DNA of 64,000 bases, taken from positions 27,259 through 91,258 of the forward strand of contig JAYUQG010000024.1 in assembly GCA_043756865.1 (NCBI GenBank), given 5' to 3'. Positions 11,488 to 41,324 of the stretch are shown here, piece by piece. How positions within the stretch are numbered: position 1 is the stretch's first letter; each line of letters opens with the position of its first letter. Made by a program: the position numbers and the translations under genes. The notes beneath the pieces were generated by a model that was not told where the DNA came from, did not search any database, and saw only the letters and a program-made list of their open reading frames with translations. The DNA is from a bacterium. GTDB lineage: Bacteria; Patescibacteriota; Minisyncoccia; Phycocordibacterales; UBA6899.

Positions 11488-12354
11488 TTACTTCACGATT
11501 GCTTTCATCGACATGTCGAGCGGGTTTCCGAGTCCGCGAGTGACGAGTGAGGATTGTGAAATGTAATCCACTCCGGTTTCCGCAATCTCGACGAGATCGT
11601 ATCCGCCGATGCCTGATGCTTCGATGACGTATGGCTTTGATTCGAAACGAATCATGTGTACAGCACGACGAAGTTCGGTGGGAGACATGTTGTCAAGCAT
11701 GATGATGTCTGCCCGACCATCGCCAAAGACGCGCATCAGTGTATCTATTGAACCGACTTCGATTTCAATCATCTCCATTAGATGTGCTGTTTTTTTGCGC
11801 ATATCAATTGCGGGAACAACTCCGCCATAGACGGCGATGTCGTTGTCCTTGATTATGATGCCGTCGTACATGCCCGTGCGGTGATTTGTGCCACCGCCGA
11901 CACGCACTGCGTCCTTGTGCATTTCACGGAGTATTGCCGCGTCTTTGCGCGTATCAAGTAGTTTCACTCGGGTGTGTGCAATGCGCGCAACATCGTTAGC
12001 AACAACGGTGGCAATTCCTGAACAGCTCGTCAGGATGTTGAGTATCGTGCGTTCTGCCTTGAGGAGCACCTCGGCATTTCCAAGGAACTCAGCAACGATG
12101 TCACTCTTGGCCACGCGGGTGCCGTCGGGTGCAAATGCGCGGAGATGCACAGGATAGCACTGCCGGCTGACTGATTGCAGAAAGAATTCCGCTTGAATCA
12201 CGTCGAGTACCATCGGAATAAACTTCATTCCGGCGATGATGCCCGAGGCCTTTGCGGTAATGCGGAATATGGTATCCGGCGCCCCATCCATTTCGTGGAA
12301 TGCGAACGCTAAGTCATGGAGTAGTAACTCGCGAATTACTTCACGTGGTGTCAT
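11488..12354 (-). CDS. nadC: nicotinate-nucleotide pyrophosphorylase (quinolinate phosphoribosyltransferase)
   Basis: LLDTRKDAAILREMHKDAVRVGGGTNHRTGMYDGIIIKDNDIA matches the conserved NadC core (KxLDTRKT...RxGGGxNHR...KDNH). Confidence 0.85.
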   Translation of the reverse strand: MTPREVIRELLLHDLAFAFHEMDGAPDTIFRITAKASGIIAGMKFIPMVLDVIQAEFFLQSVSRQCYPVHLRAFAPDGTRVAKSDIVAEFLGNAEVLLKAERTILNILTSCSGIATVVANDVARIAHTRVKLLDTRKDAAILREMHKDAVRVGGGTNHRTGMYDGIIIKDNDIAVYGGVVPAIDMRKKTAHLMEMIEIEVGSIDTLMRVFGDGRADIIMLDNMSPTELRRAVHMIRFESKPYVIEASGIGGYDLVEIAETGVDYISQSSLVTRGLGNPLDMSMKAIVK

Positions 12355-12363
12355 GATGTCTCC

Positions 12364-13488
12364 TTATGTGATGGCGAGCATGCGCTCGATGGGGATATAT
12401 GCGCGCTTGGCGACCTTGGGGTCAACGGTAATCACATGCTGCTTGTCGCGGAGCGCAAGGTAGAGGTTTTCGAGCGTGTTTTGCTTCATGAATGCACACT
12501 CGGCATCTTTGTTCGCTGGGACAATCAGTTTGTCGGGGGCGGCGAGTTGCATCGGGCGAATATTGCCGATTTCGGTGGCCATGATGATTGTCTTTTGCTT
12601 GGCGCTTTTCACAAAATCAACCATGCCTTGCGTTGACCGCGCTTGCATCTGTTCTTTTGAGACACGCCCCTCTTTGACCTCAGTCATACACGCTGAAGTG
12701 CATCCGCATTCTGGGTGATAGACGACGGCAGCTTCAGGGTGCTCCTCGCGCGCAAGTGCGACATGCATGGGGCGGATCATGTCATGGACATGGCACGCAC
12801 CCATCATCAGCCACAGTCGGTCGAGTGATTCTCCGCGGTCTTGAAGCAGTGTCGCGGCATAGAAGCCGAGGTATACATCAGGCAAAAAGAGGATTGGTAC
12901 ATCAGGGTGCGTTGCGAGCACATGTTCAATCACCTTAGTTGCGTTACCCGATGCACAGCAATAGTCCGAGAGCACTTTCACGTCAAGATAGGTGTTCACG
13001 TATGAGATGACAATGCCGTCAGGAAATTTGCGTTTCCATGCACGAATTTTTTTCGGATTCGCATGTGCCGCGAGCGAGCAGAGCGCACTCATCGATGGGG
13101 CCAGTATTGTTTGGTTCTTTTTTTGAAAGACTTCCAAAAAGACTGCAAGAATCTGGTTCATGAAAAGCACCGATGCTTCGAGTACGATGGGAGCATCAGA
13201 GTCGCGGCCGGCCTTTGCCAGCGCAAGCGAATCGCCAACAACATCTGCCACCATCTGTACGTCGTCCGGCATGTAGTTGTGTGCAAGGATGAGGGCGCCG
13301 GTGTCTTTTTTCAATCGCGCAATTTCGTATTGAAGGTATGAGCGTCGGGCGGGGGAAATGTTTGTTGCGTATGCATCAGACGAGATCTCGGGGATGTCTA
13401 TTGGGGAGCTGAGGTCCATGTGTGGAATCGAGAGCATTGCGTCAGTTGCCGGAAGAATGTCACCGGGTTTTGGAATTGGAGCGCTCAT
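12364..13488 (-). CDS. nadA: quinolinate synthase
   Basis: ILAHNYM, GDSLALA, the YHPEC Cys cluster and the ATEIG motif. Length 374 aa. Confidence 0.8.
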   Translation of the reverse strand: MSAPIPKPGDILPATDAMLSIPHMDLSSPIDIPEISSDAYATNISPARRSYLQYEIARLKKDTGALILAHNYMPDDVQMVADVVGDSLALAKAGRDSDAPIVLEASVLFMNQILAVFLEVFQKKNQTILAPSMSALCSLAAHANPKKIRAWKRKFPDGIVISYVNTYLDVKVLSDYCCASGNATKVIEHVLATHPDVPILFLPDVYLGFYAATLLQDRGESLDRLWLMMGACHVHDMIRPMHVALAREEHPEAAVVYHPECGCTSACMTEVKEGRVSKEQMQARSTQGMVDFVKSAKQKTIIMATEIGNIRPMQLAAPDKLIVPANKDAECAFMKQNTLENLYLALRDKQHVITVDPKVAKRAYIPIERMLAIT

Positions 13489-13867
13489 GATTTCTCCTTT
13501 GGAGTGGTTGAGTCAAGGAACAGGGAAGTTGTAATGGCTACAACGCATCCTAGGTTCCATCGTACCGAGCGTCAAGAAAATATGCTCGTATTAGAGCGAT
13601 ATTTGTACTCAAAACGCTTATATACTCCATCGCTCATCGGTTAATCCCCTCTGTGTGTGGCGTGACGGGGAAAATTCGAAATGTAGTATTTGTAATAAAA
13701 AAGTACAATATTAGTTATACACAAAACCTGCGGTTAAGCCCCGATAGGCCTTCGGTACTATTTCGTTTTGCCAATTACATCAAAAGTTGACACATGCTGC
13801 CCTCGTTGATGTATAGTCATTCGAGAGATTTTCTACAGCTCATTTCATTCACACGAAAGGTGTCATC

Positions 13868-15238
13868 ATGGACAAGCCGATTACTGAAGTTGACCTTGCG
13901 GTCGTTGGTGCTGGAGGAGTTTCGGGAGCAGCATTCTTGTGGTCACTTGCCGCCGCAACCGATATCAAAAGCGTGGTTGCATTCGAGCAGTTCGCCACTC
14001 CGGGGGCTGTAAACTCGAATCCTTTGAATAACGCCCAGACCTCCCACGACGGGGGAACAGAAACGAACTACTCGCTTGAGAAGGCGAGGAAGGTGAAGAT
14101 TGCCGCACTCATGTTGCGCAGGTACGTACGCTCATGCGGCAACTCGATGCTCTACAAGAAGACGCATCGCATGGTGCTTGGTGTCGGCGCAGCCGAAGTT
14201 GCCGAACTCGAAGAGCGCCAGAGAGTATTTGCTGCAGATTATCCTGACTTGAAGCTGGTGTATGGAGGCGAACTCGCACATATCGAGCCGATGGTCATGA
14301 GAGGTCGTGATCCTGCGGAACCGGTTTGTGCACAAGTATCCGATGAGGGCTATATCGTCAACTATCAACTCCTCGCGCAGGAATTGCTCGAAGAGGCAAA
14401 ACGACTGAACCCACTCCTTGATGTGCATTTCAACACGTCGGCCACACACATATCGCAGCGTGCTGACGGTCGATATCACATTGAAACAAAGCAGGGTTCG
14501 TGGCTCGCAAAGGCATTGGTGTGCACGGCCGGTGCATACAGCCTCCACTTTGCGCAATCATTGGGGTATGGACGTGATTTCGCACTCCTGCCTATCGCCG
14601 GCAACTTCTATTCGGCACCGCGCGTGTTAAATGGCAAGGTGTATCGTGTACAGCAAGAGGGGCTACCGTTTGCCGCTCCGCACGGAGATCCGGACATTTT
14701 GAGTGACAGCGTTACTCGTTTTGGTCCAACGACGAAGCCGCTTCCCTTTATGGAACGCCATCGGTGGGGAAGTATTCCCGACTTCGCCTCGATTTGGGGA
14801 AGAGCATCATGGCGTGGAGTAGTCAGTCTTGTGAAAATACTTGCTGCAAAACGCATCCTCGGATACGCAGTCAAACAGTTTTTCTTCGACTTGCCGTGGA
14901 TTGGCACTGCGCTCTTCTTGCGTGAGGTCCGCACGATTATCCCGACGATGAAATATGGCGACCTTAAGCTCAGGCGAGGTGCGGGTGGCATTCGACCGCA
15001 GATAGTCGACCTACGTTCAGGCGAGCTCATTATGGGAAGCGTAACTATCCCCGGCTACAACTCACTCTTTGTGACCACTCCGTCGCCCGGCGCGTCAATC
15101 TGTATTGCGCAAGGCAAAGAGGTGGCCGAAGCGACTGTAGCCATGTTCGAGGGTCAGTACCGTTTCGACAACGATGCATTTGAAGCAGCGCTCGACGGGA
15201 AAGCAAGACCACTCCTCGCCATAGTTCATGTAAATTAA
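13868..15238 (+). CDS. FAD-dependent oxidoreductase, malate:quinone oxidoreductase (Mqo)-like
   Basis: N-terminal dinucleotide fold DLAVVGAGGVSGAAF. NNAQTSHDGGTETNYS resembles the Mqo NNAGTGH...ELNYT block. The C-terminal TTPSPGAS motif is also Mqo-like. Confidence 0.5.
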   Translation: MDKPITEVDLAVVGAGGVSGAAFLWSLAAATDIKSVVAFEQFATPGAVNSNPLNNAQTSHDGGTETNYSLEKARKVKIAALMLRRYVRSCGNSMLYKKTHRMVLGVGAAEVAELEERQRVFAADYPDLKLVYGGELAHIEPMVMRGRDPAEPVCAQVSDEGYIVNYQLLAQELLEEAKRLNPLLDVHFNTSATHISQRADGRYHIETKQGSWLAKALVCTAGAYSLHFAQSLGYGRDFALLPIAGNFYSAPRVLNGKVYRVQQEGLPFAAPHGDPDILSDSVTRFGPTTKPLPFMERHRWGSIPDFASIWGRASWRGVVSLVKILAAKRILGYAVKQFFFDLPWIGTALFLREVRTIIPTMKYGDLKLRRGAGGIRPQIVDLRSGELIMGSVTIPGYNSLFVTTPSPGASICIAQGKEVAEATVAMFEGQYRFDNDAFEAALDGKARPLLAIVHVN

Positions 15239-15268: not shown

Positions 15269-15342
15269 ATAATTCTCAATATAAAAACAACCACCTGTGT
15301 GGTTGTTGGTTTTCCCGTCGCTAAAGAGGGGATAAAAGAAAC

Positions 15343-15564
15343 TCAGGAGCCGCGTGGGCGTTCGGTGACACGCACCTTGGCTCCCTCGGAGAGGACGGTG
15401 TCGGCGGTTGCCGGCTGTCCGTCGACGGTAACGTTCAGGCTCTTCAGGTCGAGCTTCAGGTGTGCTGCAGCCGCGCCGAGGGTGGTTGTGGGGGGCACTT
15501 CGACGTTTTTGCCGCGCTCTTTCTTGTCACTATTCAGTGGAACTTTTGTCAGGTGAATTTGCAT
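15343..15564 (-). CDS. ubiquitin-like beta-grasp protein (ThiS/MoaD-like), C-terminus RPRGS
   Basis: About 73 aa starting MQIHL, with the ThiS/MoaD pattern ...LNVTVDGQPATADTVLSEGAKVRVTERPRGS. It ends Arg-Gly-Ser rather than Gly-Gly. A GGAG ribosome-binding site precedes it. Its ATG lies 1 nt after the upstream gene's TGA. Confidence 0.6.
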   Translation of the reverse strand: MQIHLTKVPLNSDKKERGKNVEVPPTTTLGAAAAHLKLDLKSLNVTVDGQPATADTVLSEGAKVRVTERPRGS

Positions 15565-15565
15565 T

Positions 15566-16225
15566 TCAATCTCCAGTGGTTGGGTAGATGGTGATTTCTC
15601 CGCCGCACAGCCTTTCAACGTGCCAGTCTTTTCTACCACGCTTCCAAAAACTTCTCAATATGTATGCAGCTTCTGCAGCTACAACAGTCGAGACGTCGAT
15701 GATGCTATGGAGTCCGCACATTTGGGGGGCAGCTTCCGGGGTCGAGTAACTTAGGTAGTGTTCGTAATACGCGATCTCCTTTGTGTTGCAGGGTGAGATG
15801 GAAAAGACTTGCCAGAATTCCTCGGCGACACGCGTATCGATAAGTACATCGATGAGCGGATTTTTTTTCACCTTCTGCCAGATGAGCTGGCGTGCCTCCA
15901 TGGTATCGACGCAGGCAATAACTGTACGCTTCAAGGGTTCACCTTCGTAGCGTCTGCGCTGCACATTGAGTGAAATGCCCGTGTCGCGTAGGATGATTGC
16001 AGCGAGTGCGTCTACTTTGTAGAGCCCGAAGTCTCCTTCTCCGTAGAGTGACGGTGCGATGTTGTGTGACTCGACACTGTCGTGGTCGTAGACCGTGATA
16101 TCCGTAACACCCATACGTACGAGCATCGAAACGACATGACTTCCGACGGAACCCGCGCCGATGACGGTGACGGGCTTGATATCTTCATCAGGAAGGTAGT
16201 ACTTCTGCTGAGAGAGATTTAACAT
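15566..16225 (-). CDS. E1-like adenylyltransferase, ThiF/MoeB/HesA family (minimal, about 220 aa)
   Basis: VTVIGAGSVGSHVVSMLVRMGVTDITVYDHDSVESHNI is the E1 GxGxxG nucleotide-binding fold plus the D..D...SNL motif. Start taken at 16225 (MLNLSQQ), whose ATG overlaps the upstream stop (GTATGTTAA). Confidence 0.7.
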   Translation of the reverse strand: MLNLSQQKYYLPDEDIKPVTVIGAGSVGSHVVSMLVRMGVTDITVYDHDSVESHNIAPSLYGEGDFGLYKVDALAAIILRDTGISLNVQRRRYEGEPLKRTVIACVDTMEARQLIWQKVKKNPLIDVLIDTRVAEEFWQVFSISPCNTKEIAYYEHYLSYSTPEAAPQMCGLHSIIDVSTVVAAEAAYILRSFWKRGRKDWHVERLCGGEITIYPTTGD

Positions 16226-17670
16226 ACGACTGCCTCCGCGGTTTGTTCCATTTGGACTGTTGGCCATTCTTCGATTTTGTTGTAGAGGATGAGCTCGGGC
16301 GTGTAGCCCTCGGTCAGCCACCGCAAGATGTACTCGATGGCATCTGCATATCGATACTCCGCAACTGCTTCAGTGATGGGGTCGCCAACGTTTCCAAAGC
16401 AGTGTCCTGCCCACGGACTGATGTGTGGATGGGGAACTCCTTTTGGGTGGAATGCCTCTTCGCACCAGATGGTGATATGTGGGTCAATGCCCAAGCAAAT
16501 ACCAAACGTACCAATCTTGTACGTCACTCCACCATCGAGGATGGTGATGAGTTTTGTTTTCACCTCAAACCCGTAGTTGGGAATAATGATGGCACGAGCA
16601 ACGAGCGGGTGTAGCAAAATTGCTTCTGTATCTGCAACCAGATTATCCATCAGTGTTTGCTGATAGTGGACGTCTCCAAATAGGACTTTGTGCGTTTTGT
16701 GTTGCACCACAAGGTTGCGACGTTGTGCCAACAAATCTTCCTGTAGCTTAGCGATCGTTGTGACCGTCTTGGCAATCCGTGCTTCATGTGCGGTTACTTG
16801 AAGTTTTAGGAAGGCCGCACACTCGGTTTGCAGTGTTTGGCTCGAAAACGGTATCTCTATAGCGACTGCCTCATTGCCGTCGAGCCAAAATTGTAGCCCA
16901 AGGACAACAGCTTTGCTGAAGAGTTTGAGCAAGGTCGCGTCGCCGAGCTCCCACATGAGATACGGATTGTGCAGTATGTAGATGTTGTTTCCGATTACCT
17001 GCACAACGTCGTGGTCTCCGTCGGTGAGTGCGACGCCACGTCTTGGGGCACTTTTTAGCTGCGGCCAAACGAGACCTTTCGCTTCGACACTTAGCCCGAA
17101 GAGCGTATCCGGATGCGTCATCTGCGGGATGCCTGAAGGCAACGTATAGATAAACACATGGAGTTCGTCATCTTTGCACCGAATCGGTTCGTAAAAACCG
17201 GAGGGTGAAGGGTCGTGGAGAGTGAATCCGATACCGCCGACTACTTCCGCCATGATGCGAAGGTATTCGACAAAGATTGGCTGGAGCATGTGTTGCGAAC
17301 GGTCGAGCTTTTCGTCCGAGCGTGTTCCCGGTACAGGTGGCGCCATCACTGAAGTTCCCGGCTTGATGCAGATGAAGTCGAAGACGGTACCGCCAACACG
17401 ACACTCCAGTCCCTCACCGGGAGTAACAAGTTCTTCCACAACGTGTTTGATATACGGATGCGAGAAGAGCACTACTGGCAATGTCAGCTCTTCAGTGCCG
17501 ATCTGCACTGTCGCAGTAAAAATTTCGGTGCTTTGTACTGCGTCGAGCATTGTCAGTTCTGCTCGATGTACCGCGTGAGCAGCAAAAATCGGTCCTTCAA
17601 AGAGTGCAGTCGCCTGAGCAAGTTCATGGGCAGTGACATGCTTCTTTTGTGGTGTGAGATCAGGGGACAT
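16219..17670 (-). CDS. uncharacterised 483-aa protein co-operonic with E1-like and Ubl genes
   Basis: Long ORF with good composition. C-terminal region contains GTFGICLGI (E2-like GxICL context) and PHPHISP, and the protein ends ...AVVC. No confident domain assignment. Confidence 0.5.
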   Translation of the reverse strand: MSPDLTPQKKHVTAHELAQATALFEGPIFAAHAVHRAELTMLDAVQSTEIFTATVQIGTEELTLPVVLFSHPYIKHVVEELVTPGEGLECRVGGTVFDFICIKPGTSVMAPPVPGTRSDEKLDRSQHMLQPIFVEYLRIMAEVVGGIGFTLHDPSPSGFYEPIRCKDDELHVFIYTLPSGIPQMTHPDTLFGLSVEAKGLVWPQLKSAPRRGVALTDGDHDVVQVIGNNIYILHNPYLMWELGDATLLKLFSKAVVLGLQFWLDGNEAVAIEIPFSSQTLQTECAAFLKLQVTAHEARIAKTVTTIAKLQEDLLAQRRNLVVQHKTHKVLFGDVHYQQTLMDNLVADTEAILLHPLVARAIIIPNYGFEVKTKLITILDGGVTYKIGTFGICLGIDPHITIWCEEAFHPKGVPHPHISPWAGHCFGNVGDPITEAVAEYRYADAIEYILRWLTEGYTPELILYNKIEEWPTVQMEQTAEAVVC

Positions 17671-17780
17671 TTGTTTCCTTTCCTATCAATGATCAATGTC
17701 TGAGACTAGTTCAACAAGAAAATTGAGAAAAAGTCAATTTGCACCGCAGAACAGCTGTTGCGCGTGTTATAATTTTATTT

Positions 17781-18974
17781 ATGGATTTGCAACACAAAGA
17801 CTTCCGTACATTGTTCCAGACACTTGTCATGTTTATTTCGCTTGTGACATACCCGCATACTGCATTTGCGGTACTTCCTCCAGATATTTTGTTTTCTGTG
17901 GGAGCCAGCCTCTGGCAAATTCTCGCCATGGTGGGTGTATTTGTGACTGGAGCAGCGATGTCGGTGCTGCCATTTCTCAAGGGTGTGTTTACGGGGGATC
18001 GTAACTGGAGGGTCATTTCGCTCTGCGTGGGACTCACATTGCTTGCGGGTACAGGACTGCTCGCATTTCTCTCAAGGCCCAATGCGACCCCCACACCACA
18101 GCCGTCTGTGTCCACTGGAACTTCTGCATCCCTGGGATATCGTTTCTTCGCTGATCGGTTTGTTATACACGGAACGCGTAAGGATGGTACCCCTCTTCTG
18201 GTTGATTTGGTGATCAATAGAAAAGAGGCCACTCCAGGAGTATTTGCACACTACTATATGGCGCAAATTATTGATGGCGAAGCAACCGCAAAAGACTATT
18301 TTACTAGGGATGCTGCATCGCATGAGGTCCTTCCCGACCTCCTTTTCACGCGATTTGTGCGACATGCTACGTCGAGTGAACCTTCACGCGAGTGGCAGGG
18401 GTTCTCATTTTACATGCTCGGGAAGCAATATGCGGTAAGCTCGGGCCCCATGGACGGGGATTTTGTGGTGCGTAACGTTCCTGAATACAGTGAGTATTCG
18501 AGTGCGGGGTCTGGAATCGTATCCGAGGAGGGGGAGCAGGTTCCTGTTTCTATTTATCACGAACGTGTTTACTCTACTGACTATCGTCCACTTATCTTCT
18601 TTGAAGGCTCCGTAACACTCCGTTCAGAGACCGTGCAACTCGTACTATGGGATGCACTTGGAAACTTTTATCTTATTGACCGCTCGCTCGTCCCCGAGCC
18701 TTCCCCTGTTTATGCTTCTCATTTTTGGGCGTTATACAAAGACACAATGGGATATGTCAAAAAGGGATTTGTGGGTGAGGCATCAATGCAGCGCGACGGA
18801 GAAACAGTTAAATTCTTTAGCACGGTCCCTGCATTTGCAGATGCGCAGGTTGGGGTGACGCTCAAAACAAAGTTTAAGGATGATTTCGACAAAGGGTACG
18901 TTGAAGGTCAGATTGCTGACAGCGCAGGAGTGCGAAAAATTTCTGGGCAAGGCTACTTTAATATCTATGAATAA
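17781..18974 (+). CDS. hypothetical membrane-anchored protein
   Basis: N-terminal TM helices, then a roughly 300-aa soluble domain. The ORF-track start at 17739 is TTG, and the first ATG is 17781. The 3' end overlaps the start of the next gene by 8 nt. Confidence 0.45.
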   Translation: MDLQHKDFRTLFQTLVMFISLVTYPHTAFAVLPPDILFSVGASLWQILAMVGVFVTGAAMSVLPFLKGVFTGDRNWRVISLCVGLTLLAGTGLLAFLSRPNATPTPQPSVSTGTSASLGYRFFADRFVIHGTRKDGTPLLVDLVINRKEATPGVFAHYYMAQIIDGEATAKDYFTRDAASHEVLPDLLFTRFVRHATSSEPSREWQGFSFYMLGKQYAVSSGPMDGDFVVRNVPEYSEYSSAGSGIVSEEGEQVPVSIYHERVYSTDYRPLIFFEGSVTLRSETVQLVLWDALGNFYLIDRSLVPEPSPVYASHFWALYKDTMGYVKKGFVGEASMQRDGETVKFFSTVPAFADAQVGVTLKTKFKDDFDKGYVEGQIADSAGVRKISGQGYFNIYE

Positions 18975-21054
18975 TAATATACCCACGGATTTCCTTGTCA
19001 GTGCTCTGAATACTATTGGGAAAGAAAAGGAGTTTGGAGGAAAGACCATACGTCTTGCAGAACTGATACGTGAGGGGTATGCAGTGCCTACTTTTTTTGC
19101 AATTTCCGCGCCATTGGTTTTCCGCATGAAGGAGGAATTTAAAATTGATACTTATACAGTAGTGACGCAAATAGCTCACGAAGTGACCGTGCGTATCCCT
19201 GCGACACATTATGCGGTTCGTTCAAGCGCGCTTGCAGAGGACGGTGGCAACTCATCACATGCAGGAGAGTTTCTGACGTGCCTTAATGTTCCACCCGAAG
19301 GCGTTGCACAAGCAATCGCTGATGTGTTCCGTGATGCAATGCATAAAGGTTACGTCACCGCCGCACTCCCATTTTCAATAATTATTCAGGAATTTCAGGA
19401 ACCCGAGTTGGCTGGGGTACTATTCACGCGGCACCCGAGCGGTGAACGTGAGATGCTTCTTGAATGGACAAAGGGTAGGGGGGAGCAGGTTGTCTCAGGT
19501 CGTGGTGGAAAACGTTTGTCTTTTTTACGCGGCTCTCCGCCCTCCGCACTACCTCCAGCAGCGCGCCCGCTTGTGGATGTTGGCATTGCCATTGAATCAC
19601 TTTATAACTTTCCTCAGGATATCGAATGGGCAGTATCGGGCGGAAGACTGTTCTTGCTCCAAACTCGTCCTATCACCACGATTACTGGAGAGCGGTATGC
19701 GGGTATACTCAAGGCAGACGAAGTGGCGATGGGTTACCCAAAGGAATATTATTATGCGCGCGGTACACTGGCTGAGTCGTTTTCACGACCGCCTATCCTC
19801 GCTCGTTCCTTGCTGGAATACGTCTATCGTGCTTCCGGTCCTGTTGAACGCGCGTATCGCAAGCTTGGGGTGCATCCTGCATCAGCAGTGAGTTTTGTGA
19901 CGCTTTGTGGGGCATACTACATCGACCGAGAGTCGGAACTGAGGCAGTTTTATCCGACGCACAGCTATTTTGGCGGCACGCTACTGCGCCCGCATGTGGT
20001 GACACTCTCTGGGCTCTTTCGCACAATGCAAAATACGCGCGCACTCGCGCAACTTCCAAGAAAAAATATTGATACATATAAAGCAGAATTTACTGCAATT
20101 ACACATGAATGGTCTGAACTGGCAGACACAAGTGCCACATGGGAAGAGCATCTTTTGTTTCTCGACGCGTGGTACGAGCAAATATTTTTGGTCAACGTGG
20201 AGACCGAGGCGGCCATGCATAAACTGCGTGGTGCACTGCGTGGCTCGCCACACGCACTGGCAAATGTTATTGGCGCAACACTAGAGAACGTTGCCACACA
20301 TGCTCCACGCACCGCATTGCTTGGGGGAGTAAAAGCGCACATGAAGGGAAACTCGTTGAACATTGCTGATATGAGCGTATTTCAACACAAGCCTCCTGTA
20401 GCTACTCACTCGAACTTGGCGATACGTGATTGGTACAATGCGCTACCTTCGTCCCATCGTTCGCGTTTTGCACAAGCACTAGGAGAGTACCGTGCATATG
20501 AAGCACTCCGTGAGGAGGGGAGGTGGCTTACTGTCTTGCTCATGTCTGGACTACGGGACGCACTTATGCAGCGTAGTGCAGCATCAGGAATTCCAAATGA
20601 ACTTTGCTTTTTTCTCACACTCGACGAACTTCGGAGCGGGGATTGTGCAGTCGAAAAACTCAGGTCACGGTTTCAGGAACAAAGAGCATCTGACTTACTT
20701 GATTTTCCAGACGTTATTGCAAGCATTCCACGAGAGCGAAGCGAAGAAATCTATGGAGTTTCCGCAGGGGTGGCAACGGGCACACTTTCCTCATCTCGGA
20801 CAAACAAGGAAAAAGACACAATACTATTGGTAGATCATCTCGACCCGGAATTAGTCAGACATTTCCCGCACATAGCAGGAATCATCGCACGAGAAGGAGG
20901 AATACTCTCGCATCTTGCAATCATCGCTCGCGAATATGGAATCCCTGTTGTTGTCGATAGGCGCAGCGGTTCTTCATATCGGAGCGGAGACCACGTGCGG
21001 ATAGACGGAGGAAGTGGAACTATTGAGGTATCTGTAGCCCAGGAGAAGACATAA
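18967..21054 (+). CDS. PEP-utilizing enzyme family protein (PPDK-type N-terminal ATP-grasp plus C-terminal phosphohistidine swivel domain; PEP synthase / rifampicin-phosphotransferase-like)
   Basis: AVRSSALAEDGGNSSHAGEFLTCLNV matches the PPDK_N (pyruvate phosphate dikinase PEP/pyruvate-binding N-domain) motif. C-terminal GGILSHLAIIAREYGIPVVV matches the PEP-utilizers mobile His domain. No C-terminal PEP/pyruvate TIM-barrel. Confidence 0.65.
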   Translation: MNNNIPTDFLVSALNTIGKEKEFGGKTIRLAELIREGYAVPTFFAISAPLVFRMKEEFKIDTYTVVTQIAHEVTVRIPATHYAVRSSALAEDGGNSSHAGEFLTCLNVPPEGVAQAIADVFRDAMHKGYVTAALPFSIIIQEFQEPELAGVLFTRHPSGEREMLLEWTKGRGEQVVSGRGGKRLSFLRGSPPSALPPAARPLVDVGIAIESLYNFPQDIEWAVSGGRLFLLQTRPITTITGERYAGILKADEVAMGYPKEYYYARGTLAESFSRPPILARSLLEYVYRASGPVERAYRKLGVHPASAVSFVTLCGAYYIDRESELRQFYPTHSYFGGTLLRPHVVTLSGLFRTMQNTRALAQLPRKNIDTYKAEFTAITHEWSELADTSATWEEHLLFLDAWYEQIFLVNVETEAAMHKLRGALRGSPHALANVIGATLENVATHAPRTALLGGVKAHMKGNSLNIADMSVFQHKPPVATHSNLAIRDWYNALPSSHRSRFAQALGEYRAYEALREEGRWLTVLLMSGLRDALMQRSAASGIPNELCFFLTLDELRSGDCAVEKLRSRFQEQRASDLLDFPDVIASIPRERSEEIYGVSAGVATGTLSSSRTNKEKDTILLVDHLDPELVRHFPHIAGIIAREGGILSHLAIIAREYGIPVVVDRRSGSSYRSGDHVRIDGGSGTIEVSVAQEKT

Positions 21055-40965: not shown

Positions 40966-41038
40966 CCACCCGTAGCTCAGTTGGTAGAGCGGTCGTCTTA
41001 TACACGACTGGTCCCTGGTTCGAGTCCAGGCGGGTGGA
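40966..41038 (+). tRNA. tRNA-Ile with anticodon UAU (decodes AUA)
   Basis: Cloverleaf: acceptor CCACCCG/CGGGTGG, D-arm GCTC-AGTTGGTA-GAGC, anticodon arm GTCGT-CTTATAC-ACGAC (positions 34-36 are TAT), T-arm CCTGG-TTCGAGT-CCAGG, discriminator A, 73 nt. No encoded CCA. Confidence 0.75.
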
Positions 41039-41324
41039 CAAGCGAGACTCACAATGTAGAACACTGTGCGCTTGTCCAAGCCACAGCCATATCGAGGCTT
41101 GGCGAGATGGCGAGGCGGTGTGAGGCTCGGTCAAGGGAACCCAGCTTTGTGGGAACCGAGCCGCAAGACTCATTGAGAACTTTTGTCATCAAAAGATCCA
41201 ATGAGTGGACAGCTCCTGTAAGGAGGCGAACATTTCAGAAAAATTGACTTTTTGTGTCTTTCATGTTATTAAGGATATAGATGGGTAATGTCGCCCACCT
41301 CTCTGCAATGAAAGCGAGTTTGAC

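Follow-up and report, generated by a model that had tools for sequence, protein, structure and literature searches.

A putative E2-like protein encoded with a ThiF/MoeB-type E1 and a ubiquitin-like protein in a three-gene cassette of CPR bacteria

A three-gene operon within a 64,000-nucleotide stretch of bacterial DNA (assembly GCA_043756865.1, contig JAYUQG010000024.1, positions 27,259 to 91,258; hereafter the window) encodes a 483-residue protein, a small ThiF/MoeB-type activating enzyme (E1) and a ubiquitin-like protein (Ubl). As judged from sequence profiles and structure models, the 483-residue protein is probably the thioester carrier, of the conjugating-enzyme (E2) type, of a self-contained cassette for Ubl activation and transfer in the ultra-small bacteria of the Candidate Phyla Radiation (CPR); that the triad actually conjugates the Ubl to proteins is somewhat less certain. 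The C-terminal third of the protein is, by the same evidence, best placed in the E2/UBC superfamily as a divergent member that has a candidate catalytic cysteine in position. The triad as a whole looks like an undescribed protein-tagging system of CPR bacteria, a variant of the prokaryotic E1/E2/Ubl systems, and no description of the family, or of a bacterial E2 with its His-Pro-His (HPH) type of motif, was found in the literature searched (the search was incomplete and a prior description is possible). An earlier note, made from the DNA letters, had proposed that the protein may be an E2-like transthiolation partner; this role is supported by a UBC-like fold, an E2 profile match and the adjoining E1 and Ubl genes, but not by the cysteines that were named in its favour.

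The three genes (Table 1) are translationally coupled. A Shine-Dalgarno-like AGGAAAGGA lies upstream of the gene for the E2-like protein, the stop codon of which overlaps the E1 start codon in the junction GTATGTTAA, with GGAGG ahead of the E1 start; the Ubl gene begins 1 base past the E1 stop codon, with GGAG ahead of its own start. Gene calls of 219 and 73 residues in the public protein collection agree with the start codons chosen here for E1 and Ubl. The open reading frame (ORF) described in the earlier note for the E2-like protein is real, and the strings quoted from it are present in the translation (GTFGICLGI at residues 387-395, ILHNPYLMWELGD at 232-244 and EAVVC at 479-483). None of the sources checked names any of the three proteins. 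The full E2-like protein had no match in Pfam, NCBIfam, PADLOC or the PDB sequences, and a Pfam scan of 59 members of its family found no family common to them. Conservation was assessed in a close set of 18 relatives, obtained by a word-indexed search of 5.8 billion proteins, and in a wide set of 59 diverse relatives, obtained by an exhaustive profile search.

Table 1. Coordinates of the cassette, of the regions of the E2-like protein and of related cassettes. Positions are those of the window, except for L064, L065 and L068, where they are those of the viral-classed contig.
Feature	Position	Strand	Basis
E2-like protein gene, 483 aa	16219..17670	minus	ORF call; P0001 in the public collection is the identical protein
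ThiF/MoeB-type E1 gene, 219 aa, single-domain	15566..16225	minus	Pfam ThiF, hhalign, orthologue conservation
SAMP2/ThiS-like beta-grasp Ubl gene, 73 aa	15343..15564	minus	Pfam SAMP2/ThiS, PDB profile match
Intrinsic-terminator-like hairpin AACAACCAC-ACAG-GTGGTTGTT and T run	15286..15307	minus	ends the three-gene operon
Variable N-terminal subdomain, residues 1-118, low conservation	17317..17670	minus	alignments
Conserved middle domain, residues 120-265, beta-rich	16876..17313	minus	conservation
Long helix of ~55 residues (277-331), coiled-coil-like composition	16678..16842	minus	model; PDB profile search
C-terminal UBC/E2-like domain, residues 333-475: helix a1, five-strand beta-meander, HPH flap, Cys424, two helices	16246..16674	minus	domain model, Foldseek, hhalign
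Motif H414-P-H416-I-S-P-W-A-G-H-C424-F-G426-N427	16390..16431	minus	conservation; C424 codon 16399-16401
GTFGICLGI, residues 387-395	16486..16512	minus	meander strand E382-394 in model; not an active-site motif
Example cassette, L065	2668-7081		
Example cassette, L068	3019-6791		
Example cassette, L064	303-4285		

The E2-like protein

In the motif around C424, H414, P415, H416, C424 and G426 are invariant in all 59 relatives of the wide set and N427 is present in 53. The third motif position and C424 are separated by 7 residues, the same spacing as in the E2 signature HPN-x7-Cys, of which HPNINSNGSIC in UbcH5 is an example; His414, Pro415 and the spacing are kept, and the Asn of HPN is replaced by the invariant His416. 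The statement of the earlier note that the protein is without a canonical HPN is misleading in this light, as HPH-x7-C at residues 414-424 is invariant (59/59) with only the Asn replaced. This motif lies 20 residues downstream of the GICLGI string in which an E2 context had been read. A back-translated DNA pattern of the motif matched once in the window and had no match in shuffled sequences.

The full-length AlphaFold2 model has a mean predicted local distance difference test (pLDDT) score of 80.9, and residues 333-483, modelled alone with 69 sequences, reached a pLDDT of 90.9 and a predicted template modelling (pTM) score of 0.85. In the latter model, a long helix is followed by a five-strand antiparallel meander, the HPH loop, the cysteine and then two helices. 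The UBC fold consists of an N-terminal helix, a four-stranded antiparallel beta-sheet and then helices (PMC11354881). The modelled layout of residues 333-483 matches this fold, and C424 is predicted to occupy the place of the active-site cysteine, past the flap that comes after strand 4. A Foldseek search of the PDB with the domain model returned UbcH8 as the top match (E 0.045, prob 0.91, TM 0.46, 136 columns), followed by UbcH7, Ubc13, UbcH5 (UbcH5a), UbcH10, UBE2S, Ubc9 and an RWD domain, and E2, UEV or RWD proteins accounted for 17 of the 26 top PDB matches, each over 130-145 columns with TM 0.41-0.47. No single Foldseek E-value is significant, and the case is one of consistency among the matches and coverage of the full domain. 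In BFVD, the other database searched, uncharacterised viral proteins and a giant-virus E2 were among the top matches of the full-length model.

Profile-profile alignment points in the same direction. Against 11 eukaryotic E2s, the domain profile built from CPR sequences only gave an hhalign P of 2.3e-5 (probability 76%), and the profile that also includes relatives from viral contigs gave a P of 1.4e-6 (probability 90.5%, 119 columns). Both runs placed helix a1 on a1, G-x-Y-x-x-G-x-F on the strand-2/3 region of the E2s, HPH on HPN and C424 on the catalytic cysteine. As controls, 20 column-shuffled E2 profiles gave a best P of 0.013 and a reversed profile 0.47, and the N-terminal regions of the E2-like protein gave 0.35-0.92 against the E2 profile. 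The profile-profile and structural comparisons that the earlier note had put forward as checks have in this way favoured an E2, the best fold matches in the PDB being E2s. C424 is accordingly named here as the candidate catalytic cysteine, which may receive the Ubl as a thioester from the cognate E1; genes for an E1 and a Ubl adjoin it on the downstream side in all ~15 loci.

Several points weigh against an E2-type carrier. Neither the query nor any of the 59 relatives has a match to Pfam UQ_con or Prok-E2_A-E at E<=1, and the E2-like domain is therefore considered homologous at the superfamily level only, outside the existing Pfam families. The E2, MoeB and ThiF sequences used for hhalign were entered by hand rather than drawn from a database. 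In canonical E2s, the Asn of HPN plays an important part in forming isopeptide bonds, and here it is replaced; the E1 partner, for its part, has no clear equivalents of two arginines of MoeB. The Ubl ends in Ser, not Gly, with no processing peptidase present, and its activation as encoded is an assumption. Finally, no targets, ligase (E3) or deubiquitinase (DUB) are known for the triad. The HPN motif is typical of canonical E2s, and several bona fide E2s are without it; UFC1 has no HPN.

The E2-like domain is preceded by three further regions (Table 1). In the middle domain, G145, P178, G210, G212, Q224 and Y231 are each found in at least 90% of relatives, and the alignments of relatives revealed no conserved set of Ser, Cys, His, Asp or Glu residues hinting at an enzyme; this domain is a putative substrate or partner adaptor. 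The possibility that it represents a second, inactive E2/UEV-like domain is unsupported, with an hhalign P of 0.35 against the E2s and 0.055 against the C-terminal domain. Residues 277-331 form a single helix in the model, a putative dimerisation or spacer element, and over this stretch the profile search of PDB sequences matched coiled-coil proteins only, which is regarded as noise. A fold search of the PDB with the full-length model gave nothing significant, and its weak glutamine-amidotransferase-like matches to the N-terminal part are not trusted.

Within the variable N-terminal subdomain, the string E-C90-R-V-G-G-T (residues 89-95; 17386-17406) fits the rhodanese active-loop pattern CRxGx[R/T]. 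The form ECR[IV]G[DNG][TR] is kept in the closest relatives only, with C90 present in 14 of the 18 close and 21 of the 59 wide relatives. The earlier note had listed a rhodanese motif among the features that the protein does not have; the string CRVGGT at residues 90-95 contradicts this, although no Rhodanese domain is detected by Pfam. A rhodanese reading of the string was rejected on the missing Pfam match, the beta-hairpin that it forms in the model and the limited conservation of C90. The protein is also without a Pfam match to PP-loop, pyridoxal phosphate (PLP) or JAMM families, in line with the earlier note, which had listed these motifs as absent.

The E1 and Ubl partners and a proposed mechanism

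The gene directly downstream encodes a protein with a Pfam ThiF match of 4.2e-17, which aligns by hhalign with E. coli MoeB and ThiF (P 1.7e-10, 195 columns) such that Cys170 falls on MoeB C187 and ThiF C184 (hand-entered sequences). It carries the motifs GxGxxGS, VDxMxxR and DTR, with the Gly-rich loop, Lys, Mg-binding Asp and an Arg preserved. Cys170 is located in CGxH (15716-15718) at the crossover-loop position and is invariant in 12-13 orthologues, and both zinc CxxC pairs of MoeB and ThiF are absent. Weak PADLOC and NCBIfam matches, to Cap2-type models, are confined to the Rossmann motif at residues ~45-115. Non-canonical minimal E1s have their catalytic cysteine inside the adenylation domain (PMC11354881). 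The protein is, from its sequence, a minimal, non-canonical adenylation domain of the ThiF/MoeB type with an invariant crossover-loop cysteine. At its start, N-x-S-Q-Q is conserved in the place of the R-Y-x-R-Q of MoeB, and at 219 residues it is unusually small.

The orthologues of the Ubl are 71-83 residues long, and 6 of 12 match Pfam SAMP2 (best 1.3e-4) and 6 of 12 match ThiS, with the other weak matches also being to beta-grasp families. A Ubl profile compared with the PDB found SAMP2 structures first (5lda_B, E 0.0013). In each of the 14 orthologues, distant ones included, the stop codon comes directly after a C-terminal E-x-x-x-G-S (E-R-P-R-G-S here, with the Gly72-Ser73 codons at 15346-15351), and end-to-end alignment with SAMP2 places Gly72-Ser73 on the terminal Gly-Gly. 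Because Ser73 is invariant and aligned on the last Gly of this pair, and because no peptidase is present, it is suggested to be the activated residue itself. No description of a Ubl with a C-terminal Ser was found in the literature searched. UFM1 is made as ...VG-SC, with a Ser after the Gly. Activation of BilA is prevented by one additional residue past the Gly (PMC10557695). By analogy with BilA and UFM1, Ser73 could instead be a cap that is removed by an unlinked enzyme.

In the mechanism proposed, the E1, which is probably dimeric, would adenylate the C-terminal carboxylate of the Ubl, take the Ubl as a thioester on Cys170 and pass it on to Cys424 of the E2-like domain. There, His416, in place of the Asn of HPN, may help thioester chemistry or aminolysis in a stabilising or activating role; a His next to the catalytic cysteine of BilB, with which His416 can be compared, has been proposed to act as well (PMC10557695). 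The N-terminal part of ~330 residues, comprising the middle domain and the long helix, would dimerise, recognise targets and stand in for an E3. The triad encodes no deconjugating peptidase; with a tailless Ubl, maturation would not require one.

Distribution, viral relatives and known systems

In the exhaustive profile search, cluster representatives of the E2-like protein numbered 204 at E<=1e-30, 1,205 at <=1e-10 and 2,711 at <=1e-3, the weakest tier of which may contain coiled-coil false positives; nearly all of the top 150 representatives are 430-550 residues long. The genomes with names are of Candidatus Lloydbacteria or are unclassified 'bacterium' metagenome-assembled genomes, and the hosts are on this basis assigned to the CPR/Patescibacteria. 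The order E2-like, E1, Ubl is found in every locus with enough downstream flank (~15 distinct contigs), holds in the distant members P0100 and P0160, and is accompanied by no other conserved gene. Neighbouring genes at the CPR loci encode ribosomal proteins, NusG/SecE, IF-2, phosphoribosyl pyrophosphate synthetase, NUDIX and glyoxalase proteins, and those in the window include nadA, nadC and genes for a flavin adenine dinucleotide (FAD) oxidoreductase, a PPDK-like enzyme and a DUF5671 membrane protein. Surroundings of this housekeeping kind favour a cellular role other than defence. Neither a JAMM motif nor a JAB gene was found in the window or at the CPR loci, the window contains no defence regulator and no second copy, and the conserved cassette has no DUF6527, CD-NTase, transporter or export gene, or sulfurtransferase domain.

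Relatives also occur on contigs classed as viral. A back-translated pattern, HPH[IV]-x6-CFGN, scanned against the IMG/VR viral contigs matched seven contigs of 46-113 kb, and all seven encode relatives of the E2-like domain. The six intact ORFs gave hmmsearch E-values from 1e-13 to 1e-26, and a single truncated ORF gave 1e-4. The same coiled coil precedes the E2-like domain in these relatives, two of which also span the middle domain and helix. The viral-contig cassette (Table 1) encodes an E2-like protein with HPH-x7-C[FL]GN, a Prok-JAB peptidase with the JAMM signature HSH-x7/8-S-x-x-D, a ThiF E1 of ~230 residues with a conserved cysteine, and a ThiS-like Ubl with a short tail past Gly-Gly or Gly-Ser (KGGIA, KGGR, KAGSN). 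The recurrence of the E2-like domain in a classical E2/JAB/E1/Ubl set strengthens its interpretation as an E2. The interpretation is strengthened further by the co-occurrence of JAB with a Ubl tail that would be trimmed; both are missing from the CPR form, in keeping with a Ubl that is made mature. Across the CPR and viral members together, invariance is limited to H-P-H, C, G and one Leu; H408, W451 and Y456 are CPR-specific and are not kept in the viral-contig relatives.

No description of these viral-contig cassettes was found. Their proteins had no match in GenBank phages by tblastn, PHROGs searches of their neighbours were uninformative, and a search for related loci with the family alignment found no viral relatives, with a protein search using the domain alignment giving 2 matches. 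Cysteine-rich segments of CxxC repeats are present at both the N- and C-terminus of one E2-like protein (L065 4685-7081, 798 aa) and at the C-terminus of another (L068 5241-6791, 516 aa); these segments have no Pfam match and may represent zinc-ribbon or RING-like fusions to the E2-like domain. Two further contigs (L066 1-2137 and L070 1-1182) carry a tandem gene pair, each gene of which encodes an E2-like domain with HPH-x7-C[FL]GN.

Canonical UBC E2s of eukaryotes and archaea (Pfam UQ_con; e.g. UbcH5, UbcH7, UbcH8 and Ubc13) share with the CPR protein the order of helix a1, meander, flap, cysteine and helices and the arrangement His-Pro-x-x7-Cys, and the CPR protein likewise adjoins E1 and Ubl genes. 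It differs from them in having HPH for HPN, C-F-G-N from the cysteine onwards for C-L-D-I, and no UQ_con match, in that the domain is the C-terminal third of 483 residues, following a region of ~265 residues and a helix of ~55, and in its CPR bacterial host. The antiphage Bil system (BilABCD, formerly 6C/6D) resembles the triad in its operon with a separate E2 bearing a catalytic cysteine, an E1 and a Ubl, and in having no E3. The E2 of Bil is proposed to choose targets, and BilB dimerises (PMC10557695). Bil has a JAB DUB (BilC), an E1 of IAD-AAD-CYS architecture (BilD) and an E2 without the classical His and with a His after the cysteine (CEHH-type), whereas the triad has no JAB, a single-domain E1 of 219 residues, HPH before the cysteine and a housekeeping context. 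PADLOC models gave no match to the triad except to the Rossmann part of the E1.

With the UBA5-UFC1-UFM1 and archaeal UbaA-SAMP systems, the triad shares a SAMP2-like Ubl and a ThiF/MoeB-like E1 of the homodimer type that has its cysteine in the adenylation domain (PMC11354881). SAMP systems are without an E2, unlike the triad, and the triad differs from both UBA5 and UbaA systems in its Ubl ending exactly in G-S (14/14) and in its E1 without the zinc CxxC pairs. Bub (6E/DUF6527) has an E1 and an E2 without catalytic cysteines, forms oxyesters and includes a DUF6527 serine protease (PMC11601596), whereas the triad has an invariant cysteine in both the E1 and the E2-like protein and no DUF6527 in the cassette. 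Bub and Type II cyclic-oligonucleotide-based antiphage signalling systems (CBASS) are, like the triad, bacterial operons with E1, E2 and Ubl-like chemistry; in Type II CBASS, Cap2/Cap3 comprise an E1-E2 fusion acting on a CD-NTase plus a JAB, while the triad has separate genes and no CD-NTase. The sulfur carriers ThiS and MoaD combine a Ubl ending in GG with a ThiF/MoeB E1 and a sulfurtransferase, of which the triad shares the E1 type only, and none of the operon types 6a-6e of Iyer et al. 2006 matches the triad. The viral-classed cassettes are akin to it in their homologous E2-like domain, similar E1 and ThiS-like Ubl, and differ in the added JAB, the tailed Ubl and the larger E2-like proteins, some with Cys-rich tails or in tandem copies.

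Bacterial E1/E2/Ubl operons (CBASS Cap2, Bil and Bub) have recently changed views on the origins of ubiquitination; to our knowledge, all three are sporadic defence-island systems. The family described here is large (1,205 representatives at E<=1e-10), unannotated and located among CPR housekeeping genes. The E1 of the triad is smaller, and its E2 motif (HPH-x7-C) more canonical in appearance, than in any other of the bacterial systems compared, and its Ubl ends in an invariant Ser. A joint reading, which is possible but rather doubtful, is that of a chromosomal CPR module without a DUB or E3, with an E2 geometry (His-Pro-x...Cys) closer to eukaryotic and archaeal E2s than to the described bacterial defence E2s, a Ubl activated and conjugated via its C-terminal Ser, and phage-borne versions that add a JAB. 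If true, it would represent a new branch of the ubiquitin system, one whose modifier end is chemically distinct and whose role is in housekeeping and not against phages. The compact triad poses the questions of whether an E1 can activate a non-glycine terminus and what the N-terminal module of ~330 residues recognises. It ties CPR biology, where most genes are without known function, to protein tagging, and it also leads to the related JAB-containing cassettes on viral contigs.

Alternative explanations and neighbouring features

A sulfur relay would be an unlikely explanation of the operon. The E1 would then adenylate the Ubl on its way to a thiocarboxylate, as for ThiS, MoaD, TtuB and CysO, and the 483-residue protein would carry a persulfide on C424 or C90, delivering sulfur or accepting it from the Ubl. 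Such a relay would suit an E1 of the ThiF/MoeB type with its cysteine at the position of ThiF C184 and MoeB C187, a Ubl nearest to SAMP2 and ThiS, families which include sulfur carriers, and the rhodanese-loop-like string at residues 90-95; JAB peptidases also function in the sulfur-carrier pathways CysO/Mec and QbsE/QbsD. However, neither the protein nor the genes conserved around it contain a rhodanese, PP-loop or cysteine desulfurase domain, C90 is shared by just 21 of 59 relatives, the Ubl ends in GS where known sulfur carriers end in GG, and the invariant cysteine lies at the E2 catalytic position of an E2-fold domain. We know of no persulfide carrier with an E2 fold. The earlier note had offered a sulfur-acceptor cysteine for a thiocarboxylated Ubl as its second option; this has gained no positive support, given the missing rhodanese and PP-loop domains, the GS end and the distant relatives with a JAB and a tailed Ubl.

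It is quite improbable that the residues H408, H414, H416 and C424 instead form a metal site or a Cys-His hydrolase, making the protein a peptidase (acting, for instance, to cleave off the terminal Ser or to undo conjugation), or that the domain is a non-catalytic UEV/RWD-like adaptor and not a thioester carrier. Within the CPR family, conservation of three His and one Cys is complete or almost complete, HPH constitutes an HxH string, and the operon is otherwise without a peptidase though its Ubl has a residue past the Gly; catalytically inactive E2-fold proteins, moreover, are common in bacterial operons (PMC1779556). A hydrolase or metal site is, however, difficult to reconcile with the viral-contig relatives, which keep HPH and the cysteine but not H408 and already have a separate JAB, or with a spacing and register that match E2 HPN-x7-Cys exactly. 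The invariant cysteine at the E2 catalytic position also speaks against an inactive domain of the UEV/RWD type.

Maturation of a ribosomally synthesised and post-translationally modified peptide (RiPP), with the ThiF-like enzyme activating the C-terminus of a small product as MccB or PaaA do and the 483-residue protein acting as a tailoring or immunity factor, is very unlikely. ThiF-like adenylyltransferases do make RiPPs, and the invariant, odd C-terminal residue recalls MccA, in which a terminal Asn is modified, but the small protein is a conserved beta-grasp of 71-83 residues that matches SAMP2/ThiS end to end and not a short leader/core peptide, the 219-residue E1 has no extra peptide-binding domain, the conserved cassette is without a transporter or export gene, and the partner has an E2 fold. 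Least tenable is the proposal that C392 and/or Cys483 are catalytic or acceptor residues with HNP (234-236) as a displaced HPN: the strings are present and GICLGI superficially resembles G-x-I-C-L-D, but C392, inside a meander beta-strand, is Arg in 51 and Cys in only 1 of the 59 wide relatives (Cys in 2/18 close relatives), C483 is present in 2 of 18 relatives, H234 and N235 are not conserved, so that the conservation check set by the earlier note fails for every residue that it named, and the invariant HPH-x7-C lies downstream.

Several other features of the window were recorded. The genes nadC (11488-12354) and nadA (12364-13488) adjoin the convergent FAD oxidoreductase gene, of the Mqo/DAO type (13868-15238). 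No canonical nadB was seen near nadC and nadA (window 11488-15238), and the oxidoreductase might supply the aspartate-oxidase step. A tRNA-Ile gene with the anticodon TAT (UAU) is located at 40966-41039; bacteria usually decode AUA with a modified CAU tRNA, and a UAU anticodon is uncommon. Divergent from the operon, a 411-residue ORF on the plus strand (17739-18974) has an N-terminal hydrophobic stretch and no family match. It overlaps by 95 nt the start of the gene for a 724-residue PPDK_N/PEP-utilizers protein on the same strand (18880-21054), so that one or the other has probably been given the wrong start codon.

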